The notes under the pieces were generated by a model. It saw nothing but the letters and a program-made list of their open reading frames with translations, was not told the origin of the DNA and made no database searches. A stretch of 64,000 nt of DNA from Bacilli bacterium (GTDB lineage: Bacteria; Bacillota_I; Bacilli_A; RFN20; CAG-826), in contig JAGCCQ010000015.1 of assembly GCA_017651565.1 (NCBI GenBank), positions 2,034-66,033 of the forward strand. Direction: 5' to 3'. Each line of letters opens with the position of its first letter. The first letter of the stretch is position 1. Shown here piece by piece: positions 44,398 to 52,573 of this stretch. A program made the position numbers and the translations under genes.

Positions 44398-45405
44398 TCA
44401 TTTTTTGAAGAAATCTAAAAGACTTTGGAAAGTAAATACTTTCCTATAATCATAAATTGATTCAAATTTATATTCTTTTAATCGATTACAATAAGGACTT
44501 TCTGGTCCACTTAAAATAGCGTTTGTTAAACTCATTCCAAGTTCTGTGACAATAGATTCTTCCATGAAATACATACATCTAGTATATTTATATGAATCTA
44601 ACCTACTTTTCAGTTTTAAATATTTAGTTACACCTGTAAAAGCATTAGTCCAAATATTTCCAAAAATATAATCGTAATCATGATCTTTAACATCATCTAA
44701 ATAGTTAAAAGCATCTTCATTAATGATTTTGATTTTATTTCTATTTTCACATTTTGGAAGAACATATTTTTCAAAGAAATTTATTATTTCTTGGTCATGT
44801 TCAACAACCGTAATTTCTTTTACTTTTTCATTCAAAGAAGACATAAAAGTAAAATATCCATCTCTTAAACCGAGAATTAATATTTTTCCTTTGATAATTT
44901 TTAATTGTAAATATGTAGAATCTATTACTCTAGGCAAGAGCATTTGCTTTCTATGATTTGAAAAACTGAATATAGGATATGTAATTTCTTTATTAGAAAA
45001 TCCTAAGAAAATATAGTAAAGATTACTATCGGTTTGAAGATAAGAATCGCCACTTAAAAATATCTCGTATGGTTTAATATAATCTAACGAATATGGTAAT
45101 GACGAATTTTCTTTTTTTAACTGAATTAATAAATTCAAATAAACATTATCGACATATCTATTTCCATCTTTATATCTTAAGTTTTTATTTAAATAAAAAA
45201 TATCATTTTCCTTATCTTTTAATAAAGGAGCTTTTTCTACAAAGGAATTAATAATTTCTTTTTTAATTTGGTGATTATAACTACTTTTTGGAGACGAAAG
45301 TAAAGGAAAATGATTATTCAAATACATATACAAATCTGAAATAAAATTTAGATTGTTATTATATGTTTTAAGAAGTCCATCAAGAAATTCTTTATTTGTT
45401 TTCAT
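44398..45405 (-). CDS. hypothetical protein with a spermidine-synthase-like Rossmann fold (degenerate GGGDGG motif GLRDGY)
   Basis: ILILGLRDGY...VVEHDQEII...INEDAF..L....DYIFGNIW parallels SpeE GGGDGG / VEID / DGF..L / DVII.D motifs. Confidence 0.35.
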   Translation of the reverse strand: MKTNKEFLDGLLKTYNNNLNFISDLYMYLNNHFPLLSSPKSSYNHQIKKEIINSFVEKAPLLKDKENDIFYLNKNLRYKDGNRYVDNVYLNLLIQLKKENSSLPYSLDYIKPYEIFLSGDSYLQTDSNLYYIFLGFSNKEITYPIFSFSNHRKQMLLPRVIDSTYLQLKIIKGKILILGLRDGYFTFMSSLNEKVKEITVVEHDQEIINFFEKYVLPKCENRNKIKIINEDAFNYLDDVKDHDYDYIFGNIWTNAFTGVTKYLKLKSRLDSYKYTRCMYFMEESIVTELGMSLTNAILSGPESPYCNRLKEYKFESIYDYRKVFTFQSLLDFFKK

Positions 45406-46111
45406 GAACCTTTTGCTTTAAGAGTGTAAATAAATCTTTTGAGAAACAAGTTTTACCTAATGGAACAATAGAAACAATTCCGTTTAAAACTTGATAACAG
45501 TCACTATTTTTGTCGTCGCTGAAGTCAGTTTGAAGTTCTCGTCTAGCGTAGAATCCTTCTTCTTTATGGACAAAATAATATTCGTCATGACGGTAATATA
45601 AATTGCCAATAGCGATACCTCTAACTGTGTCGCCTAAAGGGAAATTAACATTTAAAAGATAATCTGTACTAAGAAGATCATGTTCCAAAATGAACTCCAT
45701 AACAATATCAAAATATTTATCAACTAGTTCAAAATTTTTCTCGCAAGAAAACGCAACAGATTTTACCCTACCAATGAGCCCACTTAAAGCAGCGCCAATT
45801 GTGCCTGAGAACAATGAATCATATGAAATATTCCAGCCGTTATTACAGCCAGAAACAACTAAATCAAACTGCATATTTAAATTGCATAAACCGAAGCAAC
45901 AGCAATCTGCAGGAGTTCCAGAACAAGAGAAAACATTTTTATCAACTTTTTCTACAACCAACGGTCTACCAACTGTAATTGCTACTGATTTTGCAGAGTT
46001 CTCTACATTAGGAGCAACAATAACTACAGTGCCGTATTTTGATAATTTTCTTCTTAATAATTGAATACCTTCTGCAAAGTATCCGTCATCGTTTACTAAT
46101 AAAATATTCAT
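45392..46111 (-). CDS. surE: 5'/3'-nucleotidase SurE
   Basis: MNILLVNDDGY N-terminus. The shorter start is preferred because a terminator hairpin lies inside the longer ORF. Confidence 0.85.
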   Translation of the reverse strand: MNILLVNDDGYFAEGIQLLRRKLSKYGTVVIVAPNVENSAKSVAITVGRPLVVEKVDKNVFSCSGTPADCCCFGLCNLNMQFDLVVSGCNNGWNISYDSLFSGTIGAALSGLIGRVKSVAFSCEKNFELVDKYFDIVMEFILEHDLLSTDYLLNVNFPLGDTVRGIAIGNLYYRHDEYYFVHKEEGFYARRELQTDFSDDKNSDCYQVLNGIVSIVPLGKTCFSKDLFTLLKQKVHENK

Positions 46112-46138
46112 ATCTTTAATTTTATAGAAAATTAGCAA

Positions 46139-46162
46139 AAAGAAAAGAGGCAAAAGCCTCTC
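46139..46162 (-). terminator. rho-independent terminator closing the Fic/EF-G-paralog operon
   Basis: Minus strand reads agaggcttttgcctct followed by tttcttttt. Confidence 0.55.
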
Positions 46163-46180
46163 TTCCGGAAAACTATATCG

Positions 46181-48232
46181 TCACTCAGTGATACGATTCT
46201 CTTTAATGACCTTGTCCTTCAAATATTCAGGAACTTCTTCGTATGAAGCAAATTCTCTGTTGAAGTAACCAGATGCTTGAGTTAAGGATTTAAGAATTGA
46301 TGCATAATCGATGATTTCTGCTTCAGGGATTAATGCTTCAATATCTTGTAAGCCATCCTTTTCTTCCATATTTTGAATTCTTGCACGTCTAGTATTTAAA
46401 TCTGACATAACGTCACCTGTGTATTCTACAGGAACGATAACGTGAATATTCATAATTGGTTCAAGAATAATTGGATTACATCTTGGATATGCATCTTTGA
46501 AAGCTAATATACCAGCCATCTTGAATGCTTGTTCGTTTGAATCGACTGGATGGTATTTACCATCAACTAAGACACCTTTAACACCAATAACTGGGAATCC
46601 TGCTAATGGGCCAGATTGTAATGCTTCAAAGAAGCCTTTTTCAACTGCTGGGAAATAGTTCTTTGGAACTGCACCACCGAAGACTTCTTCAGCAAATATG
46701 CTTTCTTCAGCTGGCTCAAATCTCATCTTAACAACACCATAGAATCCAGAACCACCAGATTGTTTGACATATCTACCATCACCTTCAGCTGTTTTCTTAA
46801 TAGATTCACGATAGACGATCTTCATTGGTTGAGTTGTGACATCAATCTTATAAACGTCTTTTAATTTTCCTAAGATGAAGTTGATGTGAGAATCACTAAC
46901 ACCGCCTAATAATAATTGTTTTGTTTCATTATTACGTTTAACTTCAACTGCAGGATCTTCTAATTGGATTTTTTGAAGTGCTGGACCAATCTTTGATTCA
47001 TCATTTTTATTAGCTAAAATAATAGCTTTAAAGATAACGGATGTAGGATAATGAGCGCCTTTATAGAAAATCTTTGATTTAGGTGAAGATAATGTCATAC
47101 CTGAAGCAACACCTTCTAAACGAGTAATTGCAACGATATCACCTGCATGTGCTTCGTTAATTGAATCTAATTTCTTACCACACATTGCGTATAACATTGA
47201 GATTCTTTGAGTACCACCATTAACAAATACTTCATCACCAGTACGGATAACACCAGAGTTAATCTTTACTAAGTTAATGATACCTGAATATGGATCACAT
47301 ACTGTTTTGAATACGTAACCTGAGAATGGTTCGTTATCATCAGTTGCTCTAAGAACTTCTTTACCATTTTCATCTTTTGCTTCATATGGTTTTAAATCAC
47401 ATGGAGATGGTAAGTAGTCAATGAACATATCTAACATAGTTAGACAGCCAATATTCTTTGTAGCGGAACCTACTAATACTGGAGCAAGTTCACCAGCTAA
47501 GACACCTTTACGCAATGATTCTCTAACTTCATCTTGAGTGAATTGTTCACCAGCGAAGAATTTTTCTAATAAAGCATCATCTGTCTTAGCGACTTCTTCT
47601 GCGATTGCGTTATATAATTCAAAGACTTTGTCTTTCTTATCATCATAGATAGGAGCTTCATTACATTTGACTCCATCAAAGATGAATGCTTTTAATGCGA
47701 CACAGTTTGCGAATCCATCAAAGCCATCATTATGTCCTAATGGATATGTAAATGGAATTGCTTGTTTGCCTAACTTAGTTCTAATTTCATCTAAGACTTC
47801 GTCAAACTTAACGTTATCTTTATCCATCTTATTAAGATAGATAAATGCAGGTATTCCACGTTTTCTTAATTGATTCCAGTGTTTAATTGTTCCAACTTGA
47901 ACACCAACGGATGCATCAATAATTAAGATAGCTCCTTTAACAGCTCCTAATGCACCGATGTATTCAGAAATGAAGTCATCATTTCCAGGAACGTCAATTA
48001 AGTTGATTTTGTGTCCTTTATAAATTAATGGAATAATTGCAGTTTGAATTGATCCACCACGTTTTTGTTCTTCTGGTAAGTAGTCAGAAATTGTATTTTT
48101 CTTTTCTACTTCACCTTTAGAAGGTATTAATCCACTAGCTAATGCTAATGCTTCAGCTAAAGTTGTCTTACCTGCACTTTGGTGTCCTAAGATTAATACG
48201 TTTCTAATGTTTTTTGCATCATAATTTGCCAT
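46181..48232 (-). CDS. EF-G family translational GTPase paralog with degenerate catalytic motifs
   Basis: 683 aa, five-domain EF-G-like. G1 is GHQSAGKT (canonical AHxDxGKT); switch II is DVPGNDDF (canonical DxPGH, so the catalytic His is replaced by Asn); G4 NKMD is intact. Confidence 0.75.
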   Translation of the reverse strand: MANYDAKNIRNVLILGHQSAGKTTLAEALALASGLIPSKGEVEKKNTISDYLPEEQKRGGSIQTAIIPLIYKGHKINLIDVPGNDDFISEYIGALGAVKGAILIIDASVGVQVGTIKHWNQLRKRGIPAFIYLNKMDKDNVKFDEVLDEIRTKLGKQAIPFTYPLGHNDGFDGFANCVALKAFIFDGVKCNEAPIYDDKKDKVFELYNAIAEEVAKTDDALLEKFFAGEQFTQDEVRESLRKGVLAGELAPVLVGSATKNIGCLTMLDMFIDYLPSPCDLKPYEAKDENGKEVLRATDDNEPFSGYVFKTVCDPYSGIINLVKINSGVIRTGDEVFVNGGTQRISMLYAMCGKKLDSINEAHAGDIVAITRLEGVASGMTLSSPKSKIFYKGAHYPTSVIFKAIILANKNDESKIGPALQKIQLEDPAVEVKRNNETKQLLLGGVSDSHINFILGKLKDVYKIDVTTQPMKIVYRESIKKTAEGDGRYVKQSGGSGFYGVVKMRFEPAEESIFAEEVFGGAVPKNYFPAVEKGFFEALQSGPLAGFPVIGVKGVLVDGKYHPVDSNEQAFKMAGILAFKDAYPRCNPIILEPIMNIHVIVPVEYTGDVMSDLNTRRARIQNMEEKDGLQDIEALIPEAEIIDYASILKSLTQASGYFNREFASYEEVPEYLKDKVIKENRITE

Positions 48233-48242
48233 AATTTTCCCC

Positions 48243-49280
48243 TTATAATCTGAAGTACTTGCTGTATCTACCTTTGGTAATTAATTGAATCTTGTCATCC
48301 TTAACTAATTCAGATAGAGCTTTTTCAATTGTTGTTCTTGATGTTGCATAAAGAACTCTTTCAATGATTTCTTTAGTAACAGGAGTTGCTGAATCTGTAA
48401 CAACTCTAAGAACTTTCTTGTCAGCATTACCTTCTTCAAGGTTGACTTCGATGATATAGTCGAATTTTCTATAAGCTTCGAGAACACACTTAAGGACAAA
48501 TTCTACGAAAGGAACATAATCATTTGTTGCATCTTCCCAGCCTTTTGCTGAAGCTTCAAATGCATCAATATAATCTCCAACACGGTGTTTCATAATGTTA
48601 GGGATTGCGAAGTAATCACCGATTGTGTAATCATTCTTCTTCATTAAGAAGTTGAGTAATAAACGGGATACTCTACCATTTCCATGGTTATATGGATGGA
48701 TGCACATGAAGTCGAACATGAATAAGATGCTTAAGACTAGTTTATTAATATGTTCATCTTTGAGACACTCGTTATATTGATAAATCAAGTTATCTAATAA
48801 TGGGACTACTTCTTCAGGAGCAGCTGTAACAAAGATTGTTCTGAAATCTCCGTCTGGCATCATCTCCTGAATATAGTTTTGAGAGTCTTTATATTGCCCG
48901 CCAAATTCTGGATTATAATCTTTATAAATGTAGTAATGTAGGGTAGAAATGAAGCTTCTATCTAATGGTTGATATTTATTAACTTCAGCGATTAAATTAA
49001 GCGCATTTCTATAGCCTGCTACCATGTGCTCCTGGAAAGTAACTGGTTTAGCACCTTTTACGAATATTTCTTCTTCTCTTGCGTCTTCAATTGTTACGTT
49101 ACCGATTTCGTTACTAGCGATAACTCCGGATCTAACTGCGATGTCAGTTAAAATATCTACTTTCTTTAAATCCTTTGCTCTTAAAGCTTTTCCACGATAA
49201 AGCTCAATAGATTGGAGCAAGGAATTGATGTTTGGGGTGTTTAAAGAAAGTGAAACACCCTTTAAGTCGAACATTCTCAT
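48243..49280 (-). CDS. Fic-family protein (Fic_N + Fido domain + C-terminal wHTH)
   Basis: Fic motif HPYNHGNGRVSR (canonical HPFx[DE]GNGRxxR, with His in place of the acidic residue); 345 aa. Confidence 0.8.
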   Translation of the reverse strand: MRMFDLKGVSLSLNTPNINSLLQSIELYRGKALRAKDLKKVDILTDIAVRSGVIASNEIGNVTIEDAREEEIFVKGAKPVTFQEHMVAGYRNALNLIAEVNKYQPLDRSFISTLHYYIYKDYNPEFGGQYKDSQNYIQEMMPDGDFRTIFVTAAPEEVVPLLDNLIYQYNECLKDEHINKLVLSILFMFDFMCIHPYNHGNGRVSRLLLNFLMKKNDYTIGDYFAIPNIMKHRVGDYIDAFEASAKGWEDATNDYVPFVEFVLKCVLEAYRKFDYIIEVNLEEGNADKKVLRVVTDSATPVTKEIIERVLYATSRTTIEKALSELVKDDKIQLITKGRYSKYFRL

Positions 49281-49395
49281 TATTTATGTACCTCTTTATG
49301 CCTCTAGTATGCACTATAATTGCTTCAATATCAAGATTTTAATTGCATATTTTTCAAAATAAAATGCGTATATATTTTTTTGTAGGATAAACCAT

Positions 49396-49440
49396 TAAAA
49401 TATAATTTTAATAAGACTAGAAAAAAGAACGATGGAATCT
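49396..49440 (-). terminator. rho-independent terminator after the GNAT gene
   Basis: Minus strand reads agaacgaagaattaagattccatcgttct followed by tttttct. Confidence 0.45.
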
Positions 49441-49483
49441 TAATTCTTCGTTCTTTTTCTCAAAATATCGAAAATTGACGTTT

Positions 49484-50538: not shown

Positions 50539-52053
50539 CTAACACTTAGGATTATCAACGTGTCCAACTAAGATAGGCACACCATTAATATCTTTAATAA
50601 TGTAAATAAATGGTTGATTTAAATCTACGTTAAGGGCGTTTCTAAAAGGTTCTGCACTCCTATCGCCACCCATAGCGCCCATAGATAGGCTCTTAACTAT
50701 TGAGCCATCTTCATTAAATTCAATTTCGTTTCTTTGCTTTGCTTGTTGTAAATAGAATCTTACACCTTCAGAACCCTCTTCTAAGAAAGCTTTATGGAAA
50801 GAGTCAATATTATTATCAAACATGTCTCCGAAACCTAGACTTTCAAAACAAGCTTTAAAATCTAGGTCTGATTTAGTCTTGAACTTAGGAGTTTTTAAAT
50901 TAACAAGAATTGGTTCATAATACTCATCATGTTTTGTAGAAACTTCTTTTTCTATATTTTCTTCGAATATATTAACGTTTCTTGTAAGATCAAAAATATT
51001 ATCTTTTGTATCCTTAGGAATAATATAAGTTACAGTTGCGTATCTATTCATATAAATATCTGAAAATGAGATATAAGAACCATAATCATAATATTTGTCC
51101 GTATAAAACTCATGTTGCATATAAGTAACTTGTGTAGTTGATCCATTAGACAAGTAGAAAGTATCTTCTATGTTAGTTTCAGATAAATATTTATAAGCCC
51201 ATGCATTTTTAAAATATAAAGTAGAGAAATAATATAAGACTGTATATTCATTTACTCCTAAGAATTTTTCATCAATAAATCCTTTAGTGTCCACTGCTTT
51301 TTCTACCCATTCAACGAGTTTGCTGCCATTTGTTTGTAAATCAGTTTCATAACATTCACAGTACATTTTAGATAATTTATTTATATAGTCAGGATTTGGA
51401 TCATAAGCGTTATCAAAGAAAGCTGCATTTTTAAGTTGTGTGGTGCTTTCTTGAGAAACGAAAGAATTTGCTTTCATAACTTTGCCATAAAAGTTAGTTC
51501 TGCTTTCTTCGTTTAATCCCAACAAGTTATCAAATTGAGTTTGTAAATCTTCTCTAGAAATAGCACCATATAGTTCATTTAAAATAGAATATAGTCCAAT
51601 GGTTGCATATGACATATTATCTGCTTTAGAAGAATTAACTAAAGAATGATATGTAGTATTAGAGAACTCATTAAATGCGTTTATTTCATTTTCAGCGAGT
51701 TCATTTTTTATCGGAGCATCACTATTTGGATAAGAAATGTCATTAAGTTTTCTTACTGAATTAGATTCTGCTAATGCACTTGCATTTACAGAAAGTCTTC
51801 TTCTTGCAGTTGTTACGCTTTCATTAATATTAATATTTGAAGCAATAGGAATTGCGACAACAGCTATTGCTATAGCAGAAAAGCTAACGATTCCAATAAT
51901 CTTTCCTCTTCTTTTTCTTCTTTCTTTGGCAAGACGAATTTCGTCTTCTCTTGTAAAAATATTAGGTTCTAATTGAGAAACATCGAAAGTTAAATTTACA
52001 TTATTATTAGATTCTTCAAAATCTTTTTTAAATTGTTCTTTTATCTTATTCAT
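50539..52053 (-). CDS. anti-sigma factor-like membrane protein with an extracytoplasmic serpin domain
   Basis: Overlaps the ECF sigma gene by 8 nt. A 55-aa cytoplasmic N-terminus precedes a single TM helix (IIGIVSFSAIAIAVVAIPIA). The 360-aa C-terminal region carries serpin signatures: YFSTLYFKNAWAYKY (serpin NAxYFKGxW) and NQPFIYIIKDINGVPILVGHVDNP (serpin PFLFxIR...LFxGxxxxP). Confidence 0.6.
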   Translation of the reverse strand: MNKIKEQFKKDFEESNNNVNLTFDVSQLEPNIFTREDEIRLAKERRKRRGKIIGIVSFSAIAIAVVAIPIASNININESVTTARRRLSVNASALAESNSVRKLNDISYPNSDAPIKNELAENEINAFNEFSNTTYHSLVNSSKADNMSYATIGLYSILNELYGAISREDLQTQFDNLLGLNEESRTNFYGKVMKANSFVSQESTTQLKNAAFFDNAYDPNPDYINKLSKMYCECYETDLQTNGSKLVEWVEKAVDTKGFIDEKFLGVNEYTVLYYFSTLYFKNAWAYKYLSETNIEDTFYLSNGSTTQVTYMQHEFYTDKYYDYGSYISFSDIYMNRYATVTYIIPKDTKDNIFDLTRNVNIFEENIEKEVSTKHDEYYEPILVNLKTPKFKTKSDLDFKACFESLGFGDMFDNNIDSFHKAFLEEGSEGVRFYLQQAKQRNEIEFNEDGSIVKSLSMGAMGGDRSAEPFRNALNVDLNQPFIYIIKDINGVPILVGHVDNPKC

Positions 52054-52573
52054 TGAAACTACCTCCGTAAAAATCACGAAGTTTATATATTCCGCGTTGA
52101 TATTTAGAGGAAACTTGAGATGTAGTTAGATTATTAGCTATAGCGATCTCTTTAAATTTAAATCCATAAATTAGATGTAAGACTAAATACTGATATTCTT
52201 CTTCATCTAATACTTCTTTAAAATTTTCTAGATAGATGGAAAGATTATCGCTATCGGCTTTTCCCTCTATATTATCGGAATATGCGAGATGGTCTTTATT
52301 TTGGTTATAACGATTAATTGAAAGGTTTTTGGCAGTGACAAGTAAGAAATATTTAAGTTTACTTTCATTATCAAAATTGCCTCTATTTTCATACATCTTT
52401 AAGAAAGTCTCATTTACTATGTCTTTAGCTTCTTCTTCAGACTTTAAAATGTCATAAGAAACGTAATAGACAAGATAACGATACTTATCAAAGACAATGT
52501 TAAAAGCTTCATTCATTTCATTAACTGAAGTTGAACATAACTTTTTTAAAATCGAATAGCCAATCTTTTCCAT
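52046..52573 (-). CDS. ECF (group 4) RNA polymerase sigma factor
   Basis: Region 2 (DIVNETFLKMYENRGNF, LLVTAKNLSINRY) and region 4 (EIAIANNLTTSQVSSKYQRGIYKLR). Confidence 0.8.
   Translation of the reverse strand: MEKIGYSILKKLCSTSVNEMNEAFNIVFDKYRYLVYYVSYDILKSEEEAKDIVNETFLKMYENRGNFDNESKLKYFLLVTAKNLSINRYNQNKDHLAYSDNIEGKADSDNLSIYLENFKEVLDEEEYQYLVLHLIYGFKFKEIAIANNLTTSQVSSKYQRGIYKLRDFYGGSFNE

Follow-up and report, generated by a model that had tools for sequence, protein, structure and literature searches.

The element described here is a two-gene unit within a 64,000-nucleotide (nt) stretch of DNA, referred to as the window, from contig JAGCCQ010000015.1 of a Bacilli bacterium (GCA_017651565.1). 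In the list of open reading frames (ORFs) of the window both genes lie on the minus strand. The first encodes a Fic-family protein and the second, after a 10-nt gap, a homologue of the translation elongation factor EF-G. This homologue is of the type known as EF-G2 (EFG II), and the conserved pairing of such a protein with a Fic protein appears to be undescribed; no literature linking a Fic protein to EF-G was found. The features of the locus are collected in Table 1.

Table 1. Features of the Fic/EF-G2 locus, with positions in the window (aa, amino acids).
Feature	Position	Strand	Details
Fic-family protein gene	48243..49280	-	345 aa; Pfam Fic
EF-G2/EFG II-type paralogue gene	46181..48232	-	683 aa; Pfam and NCBIfam NF009381
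Spacer between Fic and EF-G2 genes	48233..48242	-	10 nt; GGGG ribosome-binding site for the EF-G2 gene
Terminator-like hairpin and T run, end of operon	46131..46166 (hairpin 46166..46141)	-	11 pairs, 5 of them G-C
Ribosome-binding site AAAGAGGT of the Fic gene	49290..49297	-	Read from the sequence
Promoter-like site TTGATA-17-CATACT	49306..49334	-	9/12 matches in scan
Operator-like element ATATACGCA-N15-TATGCAATT	49341..49373	-	Diverged version of the clade repeat, next to the -35 box
Weak hairpin AGAACGA...TCGTTCT and T run, 3' of the GNAT gene	49426..49454	-	Read by eye
Fic signature HPYNHGNGRVSR, residues 195-206	48663..48698	-	His195, GNGR and Arg206 kept; acidic residue replaced by His199
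Inhibitory-motif position SNEIGN, residues 56-61	49098..49115	-	Gly60 for the Glu of S-x-x-x-E-(G/N)
P-loop GHQSAGKT, residues 16-23	48164..48187	-	Aligned under AHIDAGKT; Gly16 for Ala, Ser19 for conserved Asp
Switch I/G2 RGGSIQ, residues 58-63	48041..48058	-	Canonical RGITIT; Ser61 for Thr
Switch II DVPGNDDF, residues 80-87	47972..47995	-	Aligned under DTPGHVDF; Asn84 (47981..47983) for catalytic His

An earlier note on this DNA had described the pair as a two-gene operon, and the layout agrees: the genes are closely spaced, a promoter-like site precedes the first and a single terminator follows the second. Orthologues carry TTGAAA-N17-GATAAT at the position of the promoter-like site, and the GAGGTA within the ribosome-binding site of the Fic gene is conserved among them. 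A terminator scan of the spacer between the two genes found none, and the same scan recovered the hairpin and T run that the note had placed downstream of the second gene. For the upstream limit, the note had named a terminator of the neighbouring GNAT gene. A hairpin is visible there, but it is weak, has a 15-nt loop and was not flagged by the scan; it is a possible terminator and a possible upstream limit of the unit. There is no small ORF adjoining the Fic gene, which has 203 nt of intergenic sequence upstream and 10 nt downstream.

The second gene encodes a full-length EF-G homologue. The Pfam models GTP_EFTU, EF-G_D2, EFG_III, EFG_IV and EFG_C all score above their cut-offs, corresponding to domains G/G', II, III, IV and V, and HMMER aligns residues 4-676 to solved EF-G structures. 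The structure alignment upholds the claim that the catalytic His of switch II is replaced by Asn, with the P-loop also altered and the nucleotide-binding motif NKMD kept. Asn84 is present in 54/54 orthologous EF-G2 copies, so it is neither chance nor a sequencing error. Hydrolysis-competent translational GTPases are recognized by the His of DxPGH, the Asp of AHxDxGKT and the Thr of G2; the window protein has Asn84, Ser19 and Ser61 at these positions.

The statement that this GTPase matches no known class did not survive comparison with the EF-G subfamilies. Its score on NCBIfam NF009381 (PRK12740.1-5) is 774 bits, where the cut-off is 583. A study by Margus et al. (2011, PMC3150367) lists as G-domain signatures of EFG II a Gly at position 16 (Ala in EFG I), a Leu at 25 (Thr) and a Ser at 61 (Thr), with the G2 sequence RGITI relaxed to xxxSx. 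The window protein bears Gly16, Leu25 and Ser61, and its G2 sequence is RGGSI. On profile scores and signature residues it is placed in the known EF-G2/EFG II subfamily. It falls below the cut-offs of the narrower EF-G2 equivalogs NF009377 (494 bits against 890) and NF058620 of Bacteroides (535 against 1000) and therefore represents a different branch of that subfamily. According to the same study, genomes with EFG II invariably encode a canonical EFG I as well. No second EF-G was found within the 64-kb window. The gene lies outside the str operon (rpsL-rpsG-fusA-tuf), its neighbours in the window being the Fic, GNAT, SurE and spermidine-synthase-like genes.

Two other identities were considered and rejected. 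A canonical EF-G is excluded by the equivalog TIGR00484, which the protein fails with 586 bits against a cut-off of 659. A tetracycline ribosomal protection protein is excluded by tet_protect NF012153 (300 bits against 775). The protection proteins TetM, TetO and TetQ are, like the window EF-G2, EF-G-derived GTPases that bind the ribosome, and the G' and IV domains of the window protein resemble those of EF-G. Unlike the window protein, members of that group retain the catalytic His.

The loss of this residue is widespread among the relatives of the window protein. Metagenome contigs were scanned with an alignment of the EF-G2 orthologues, giving 80 relatives of 37-73% identity, and the switch-II His was present in 0/80. 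Among the 21 loci of 44-58% identity with a readable motif the position holds Asn in 14, and Ser, Gly, Thr or Met in the others; at around 37-45% identity it is mostly Tyr, Phe or Ala. EF-G-2 of Thermus thermophilus (PDB entry 1WDT) reads GHAGSGKT in the P-loop and DAPGYGDF in switch II, that is, Tyr at the His position. PDB entry 7UVP reads DCPGSDDF, with Ser; its deposited name is TetQ, and it is probably a Bacteroides EF-G2. EF-G2 of Mycobacterium smegmatis (MsmEF-G2) also has Tyr and lacks ribosome-dependent GTPase activity. In papers that cite Han et al. (2023), the EF-G2 of Bacteroides thetaiotaomicron is described as translocating without GTP hydrolysis and as being induced by carbon starvation.

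The description of the protein as a pseudo-translational GTPase is thus sound as regards the loss of the His, but not as a novelty, as no relative retains the residue and MsmEF-G2 was already characterized as lacking ribosome-dependent activity. The idea of a unique EF-G without the catalytic His was rejected, since the residue is missing in all 80 relatives, in 1WDT and in 7UVP. An EF-G paralogue of this kind is the norm in the EF-G2 family, where the idea is already established. The window protein shares with the EF-G2 group (T. thermophilus 1WDT, M. smegmatis and B. thetaiotaomicron fusA2) the five domains, the GHxxxGKT P-loop, Gly16, Leu25, the G2 Ser and a location outside str. It differs in having Asn in place of the Tyr of 1WDT and MsmEF-G2 or the Ser of 7UVP, and Asn is found only in relatives of about 50% identity or more. 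In the window's clade it also has an obligate partner in the Fic gene upstream, and a promoter repeat of its own, both described below; no such partner is reported for any characterized EF-G2.

The first gene encodes a clear member of the Fic family (Pfam PF02661, 55.9 bits against a cut-off of 24). Its best solved relative is a Fic protein of Bordetella bronchiseptica (PDB entry 8UQU, E 2e-41, residues 23-343), on which no relevant literature was found. An AlphaFold2 model from 81 sequences, with a mean predicted local distance difference test score of 95, begins with N-terminal helices, continues into the Fic core and ends in a C-terminal winged helix-turn-helix. The winged-helix region is formed by helices 286-296, 303-309 and 315-327 and strands 331-335 and 341-344. 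Foldseek matched the model to 8UQU, 7CB8, 4RGL, 8CIL and the SoFic entries 3EQX and 3ZEC, with about 367 columns aligned to the last two, and gave a probability of 1.00 to many Fic structures. As modelled, the protein has the SoFic layout of inhibitory-type helix, Fic core and winged helix.

The active site departs from the family at two main positions. The earlier note had reported a His where Fic proteins have an acidic residue, and this was confirmed in the signature at residues 195-206. A Tyr also stands in place of Phe, and the other positions of the motif are kept. An additional change, on which the note did not remark, is the loss of the inhibitory Glu. The segment SNEIGN aligns to SSNRLEGV of 8UQU and to SNxIEGI of about 100 family representatives. 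Of the class II autoinhibition motif (S/T)xxxE(G/N), the helix and Ser56 are present, and the Glu has become Gly60. His199, which replaces the metal-binding Asp, occurs in 57/57 Fic sequences and Gly60 in 56/56 orthologues, so chance or a sequencing error can be set aside. A family search of 1.84 billion cluster representatives returned a broad family of proteins of about 350 aa, nearly all of which carry SNxIEGI and HPFxDGNGRxSR. Gly60 and His199 were found together only in the lineage of the window's Fic, down to 44% identity.

A dead enzyme is disfavoured by the pattern of conservation. His195, GNGR, Arg203 and Arg206 are each conserved in at least 98% of the 57 sequences while overall identity ranges from 99% down to 44%. 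Replacement of the inhibitory Glu by Gly is the standard laboratory mutation for relieving autoinhibition in Fic proteins, and by analogy Gly60 is its natural equivalent. His199 may alter the metal or donor specificity, or lower the activity. Two orthologues have irregular genes. In one (L045:228-1265) the frame is interrupted by a stop at codon 278, where the alignment has Glu; this could mark a pseudogene or an assembly error. Another (L044:6001-6993) lacks 15 aa of the winged helix.

Among the closest known systems are Fic proteins with a winged helix. SoFic (Shewanella oneidensis SO_4266), CccR, CbFic2 and 8UQU share with the window Fic the N-terminal helices, the inhibitory-type helix, the core, the winged helix, the catalytic His and GNGRxxR. 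The window protein differs from this group in having Gly for the Glu of inhibition and deAMPylation, His for the Mg-binding Asp, and Tyr for Phe. It is only 14-29% identical to the solved winged-helix members, and it is not a SoFic orthologue, as it scores 21.7 bits on the SoFic equivalog NF046030 against a cut-off of 550. A July 2026 preprint (10.64898/2026.07.09.737422) reports AMPylation of EF-Tu by SoFic in switch I, where T65 is the main site and T62 a secondary one. The inhibitory Glu was found to be needed for deAMPylation, and an E73G mutant was toxic and unable to deAMPylate. The SoFic dimer also binds its own promoter less than 100 bp from the start codon, as CccR does. The known target of SoFic is therefore a translational GTPase, and the window Fic shares an operon with a paralogue of one. 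The earlier note had put forward two ideas, a toxin/decoy arrangement and a ribosome factor regulated by modification. Both became more plausible with the preprint, given the same domain layout, the AMPylation of EF-Tu and the binding of its own promoter.

The distribution of the pair was examined by scanning one genome per GTDB species with the Fic alignment. This gave 56 loci, all in uncultured metagenome-assembled genomes (MAGs) from rumen or gut, mostly labelled Bacilli, Bacillales or Erysipelotrichaceae, with one Candidatus Enteromonas. Two of the contigs are labelled Gemmiger formicilis (L052) and Oscillospiraceae (L029) although they carry the usual genes of the Bacilli clade, and they are probably mis-binned. 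Switch II of the EF-G2 in L052 reads DLPGNDSF. The earlier note had proposed a check for co-occurrence in related genomes, and the pairing proved to be conserved throughout: an EF-G2 gene lies 3' of the Fic gene on the same strand in 54/54 loci with downstream sequence, at gaps of 0-40 nt (median 11). Within these species genomes a Fic with Gly60 and His199 was never observed without EF-G2. Mean identity among the paired orthologues is 74% for EF-G2 and 66% for Fic. The metagenome loci gave a similar picture from the other side, with Fic present at five of the six in-clade EF-G2 loci that have upstream sequence.

The genes around the pair are not conserved. Upstream, the GNAT, phosphatase and serpin genes are common to the closest relatives only. 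Downstream, roughly half of the loci have SurE after the pair, at distances that differ, and in L007 a SurE-aldolase-deaminase block is inverted and lies upstream of the pair. This turnover bears on whether the adjacency is neutral, in which case a Fic gene would have landed 5' of fusA2 in a single clade's ancestor and been passed on without functional coupling. The paired genomes are indeed all related, uncultured Bacilli of one group, and one in-clade locus (L071) retains EF-G2 without the adjacency. Retention in 54/54 genomes despite the turnover of both flanks, with Fic diverged to 44% identity, is however difficult to reconcile with drift, as are gaps that stay at 0-40 nt, active-site changes unique to the linked lineage and a conserved promoter element. 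Neutral adjacency is considered highly improbable.

Outside the clade the pairing was sought from both the Fic and the EF-G2 sides, and none was found. The nearest Fic relatives with canonical motifs (P0244 group, 35-47% identity) have an EF-G neighbour in 0/4 contexts. Asn-type EF-G2 genes of 46-58% identity have a Fic neighbour at 0/20 loci, and more distant EF-G2 genes at 0/53. The absence of Fic from all 20 of the former indicates that Asn-type EF-G2 is older than the Fic partnership. As judged from these sequences, the partnership arose once, together with both Fic active-site changes.

Other genes stand beside EF-G2 in the relatives that lack Fic. A sister lineage, whose EF-G2 reads DAPGNDxF and is 50-56% identical to that of the window, has a P-loop kinase-like ORF of 183-186 aa that ends 12-25 nt before the EF-G2 gene (L077:2919-3479, L079:2924-3475 and L086/L087/L088:2937-3488). 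This ORF matches PDB entry 2RHM, a 'putative kinase' (E 5e-11), and its similarity to Pfam AAA_18 falls short of the threshold. The presence of an unrelated gene of phospho- or nucleotidyl-transfer type in the place of Fic is a hint that covalent control of EF-G2 may be more general. At other loci Asn-type EF-G2 lies beside translation genes, with ribosomal protein L17 upstream in L080 (3029-3388) and the tRNA methyltransferase TrmO upstream in L082 (2660-3364) and L085 (84-839). In an Erysipelotrichaceae MAG (L061:5001-6852) a canonical-motif Fic relative is followed by a shorter Fic-domain gene (236 aa) and then by a large DUF2726 helicase gene, a context that looks more like a defence island.

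The promoter region of the operon contains a second conserved element. An inverted repeat, AAyTCrGTA-N15-TACykAAtT, occurs clade-wide upstream of the Fic gene, with its second arm abutting the -35 box; its 33-bp form is AATTCGGTA-N15-TACCGAATT. The 9-15-9 arrangement with a spacer of exactly 15 nt was found upstream of 37/53 orthologous Fic genes, its end lying 43-61 nt from the ATG. As controls, with any spacer of 8-21 nt allowed, a match was found in 9% of shuffled sequences and in 5% of other 200-nt windows. There was no match in the 80 metagenome EF-G2 loci, only five of which are Fic-linked. The position of the repeat is fixed relative to the -35 box although the upstream genes vary. A role as the terminator of the upstream gene was rejected, the stem being A/T-rich and the loop 15 nt long with the T run inside it. 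Where a subclade has variant arms, the first part of the predicted recognition helix of Fic varies too; this covariation of arm and helix is suggestive and is confounded by phylogeny. In many orthologues (L008, L012, L015 and others) the arm TACCGAATT occurs a third time, about 130-160 nt ahead of the Fic start. This copy and the first arm can form the stem of a hairpin with a T run behind it; the copy could be an extra operator site or the terminator of the upstream gene.

From the likeness to SoFic and CccR, binding of its own promoter is likely for the window Fic. It is then a question whether the protein is purely a transcription factor for the EF-G2 gene, its Fic domain being ligand-sensing or inactive and no covalent modification taking place. 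The conserved repeat, the position of Fic as first gene of the operon, which is typical of autoregulators, and the promoter binding of its winged-helix relatives CccR and SoFic would all fit such a role, as would the joint loss of the inhibitory Glu and the metal-binding Asp with the departure from the strict AMPylation motif. SoFic and CccR are nevertheless each both regulator and enzyme, and the near-invariance of His195, GNGR and both Arg residues, at 98% or more of 57 sequences spanning 44-99% identity, is hard to square with a non-catalytic domain. A regulator without enzymatic activity is accordingly regarded as unlikely.

A further explanation starts from Fic-fold enzymes that are encoded beside a partner which controls them. 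In Doc/Phd, VbhT/VbhA, FicT/FicA and Sofic/AS1, a Fic-fold enzyme that is toxic or directed at translation lies next to the gene of a controlling partner, as here. Doc is a Fic-fold kinase toxin that phosphorylates EF-Tu, and its motif contains ANKR in place of the GNGR of the window Fic. The partner in class I Fic toxin-antitoxin modules is a small antitoxin supplying the inhibitory helix, whereas that in the window is a 683-aa translation-factor paralogue; the locus shows neither the class I arrangement nor the Doc/Phd motif HxFx(D/N)(A/G)NKR. In the Escherichia coli Sofic defence protein, a small antitoxin gene lies directly downstream (PMC12249575). The PADLOC SoFic hidden Markov model matches the window Fic with 100 bits (E 3.5e-29) in a library that carries no cut-off, and PADLOC gave no match for EF-G2. 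A defence-system reading of this match was rejected, as it reflects family-level similarity to SoFic only and the context is one of housekeeping genes.

The pair could on this evidence be a toxin with its antidote or decoy, possibly an abortive-infection module, in which EF-G2 absorbs the modification of a de-inhibited Fic toxin or binds the enzyme until a trigger appears. The change from Glu to Gly is the mutation that renders SoFic and other Fic proteins toxic and SoFic deficient in deAMPylation. EF-G2 also occupies the position of the E. coli Sofic antitoxin gene, the PADLOC model matches, and Fic never occurs without EF-G2 while EF-G2 can occur without Fic. Against this, Asn-type EF-G2 predates the Fic link and stands alone in sister lineages, which implies a function of its own, and it is more conserved than Fic (mean 74% versus 66%). 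The neighbours are housekeeping genes across 56 species, with no mobile-element or defence-island genes adjoining, the NCBIfam SoFic equivalog is far from its cut-off, and an antitoxin of 683 aa is without precedent. A toxin-antidote pair is decidedly unlikely.

The reading preferred here, held at slightly less than even confidence and drawn by analogy with SoFic and the known EF-G2 proteins, is that of a lineage-specific operon in which a self-regulated Fic protein modifies a translational GTPase and works alongside a hydrolysis-deficient EF-G2 as alternative ribosome factor. EF-G2 would be able to bind the ribosome while lacking normal ribosome-activated GTP hydrolysis, like the characterized EF-G2 proteins, which are either slow, GTP-sparing translocases or stress-specific ribosome factors. 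The expectation follows from the missing catalytic His, P-loop Asp and G2 Thr, with the nucleotide-binding motifs and ribosome-binding domains kept. The winged helix of Fic is predicted to bind the 9-15-9 repeat at the operon promoter and so to regulate its own synthesis. The Fic domain, in which the catalytic His and the anion hole formed by GNGR are kept, would covalently modify a translational GTPase, either the co-translated EF-G2 or EF-Tu/EF-G1.

The Glu that was lost has two roles, the blocking of AMPylation and the catalysis of deAMPylation; without it, Fic would be a one-way transferase that is not autoinhibited. His199 in place of the Mg-binding Asp may have changed its metal or donor specificity. 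Candidate roles for EF-G2 are those of substrate, of replacement for inactivated EF-Tu/EF-G1, or of antidote. The pair might thereby shift translation to an EF-G2-dependent mode of low energy use or stress. A narrower form of the proposal, in which Fic is a dedicated, irreversible modifier co-encoded with a GTPase-dead EF-G paralogue, is doubtful. It has two variants: EF-G2 is the substrate, or EF-Tu/EF-G1 is inactivated while an insensitive EF-G2 takes over.

Several observations count against the operon of Fic modifier and alternative ribosome factor. By a published criterion (PMC3667792) the strict motif HxFx(D/E)GNGRxxR predicts AMPylation, and proteins that depart from it are expected to be active in some other way or inactive; the window Fic has His199 where the motif calls for D/E. 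The paired genomes all come from a single clade, and shared ancestry accounts for part of the conservation. The in-clade EF-G2 of L071 has no adjoining Fic gene, and is 88% identical to a Fic-linked orthologue with all clade-specific residues present. The window's own operator arms are diverged and barely palindromic. The positions of EF-G2 specific to the Fic-linked clade are few, being Q63, K402, M470, S477, Q568, T614 and Q620 only, and Gln63 is the sole one in switch I. The residue equivalent to T65 of EF-Tu, the main SoFic site, is Thr in just 38/54 Fic-linked orthologues, and Ser61 is invariant yet required for Mg binding anyway. A clade-specific Thr, Tyr or Ser in the switch regions, as a candidate modification site, was not found. 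At L071 (2411-3480), DUF3990 and DUF6275 genes lie directly upstream of EF-G2, where Fic would be expected.

Further features of the neighbouring genes were noted. The SurE ORF as listed (45392..46153, minus strand) begins at a TTG inside the EF-G2 terminator, and its true start is probably the ATG at 46111 (MNILLVNDDG). The spermidine-synthase-like gene (44398..45405) has 14 nt in common with the end of SurE. On the other side, a gene for a sigma-70 region-2 sigma factor, of the extracytoplasmic function type in appearance (52046..52573, minus strand), overlaps the start of the serpin gene (50539..52077, 512 aa), whose product has a hydrophobic segment at its N-terminus. The two look like a sigma factor and membrane-anchored anti-sigma factor pair, with the serpin as outer domain.

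The pairing of Fic and EF-G2 points to a form of translational control that would be new. EF-G2 paralogues occur widely, and only for a few species is it settled what they do. As far as the available accounts go, EF-G2 serves GTP-sparing translation during gut colonization in B. thetaiotaomicron and is a stress factor in mycobacteria. The conserved operon offers a testable route into the control of EF-G2 at the protein level. It is also a natural experiment on Fic chemistry, in which the inhibitory Glu and the Mg-binding Asp were lost and the other catalytic residues kept across 56 species. If EF-G2 is the substrate of Fic, it would be the first EF-G2 to be switched post-translationally. If Fic instead inactivates EF-Tu/EF-G1 and EF-G2 is insensitive, the operon would switch translation from one mode to another in a hard-wired manner. 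The hosts are abundant, uncultured Bacilli of the rumen and gut with small genomes, and a translation switch linked to starvation would bear on their persistence.

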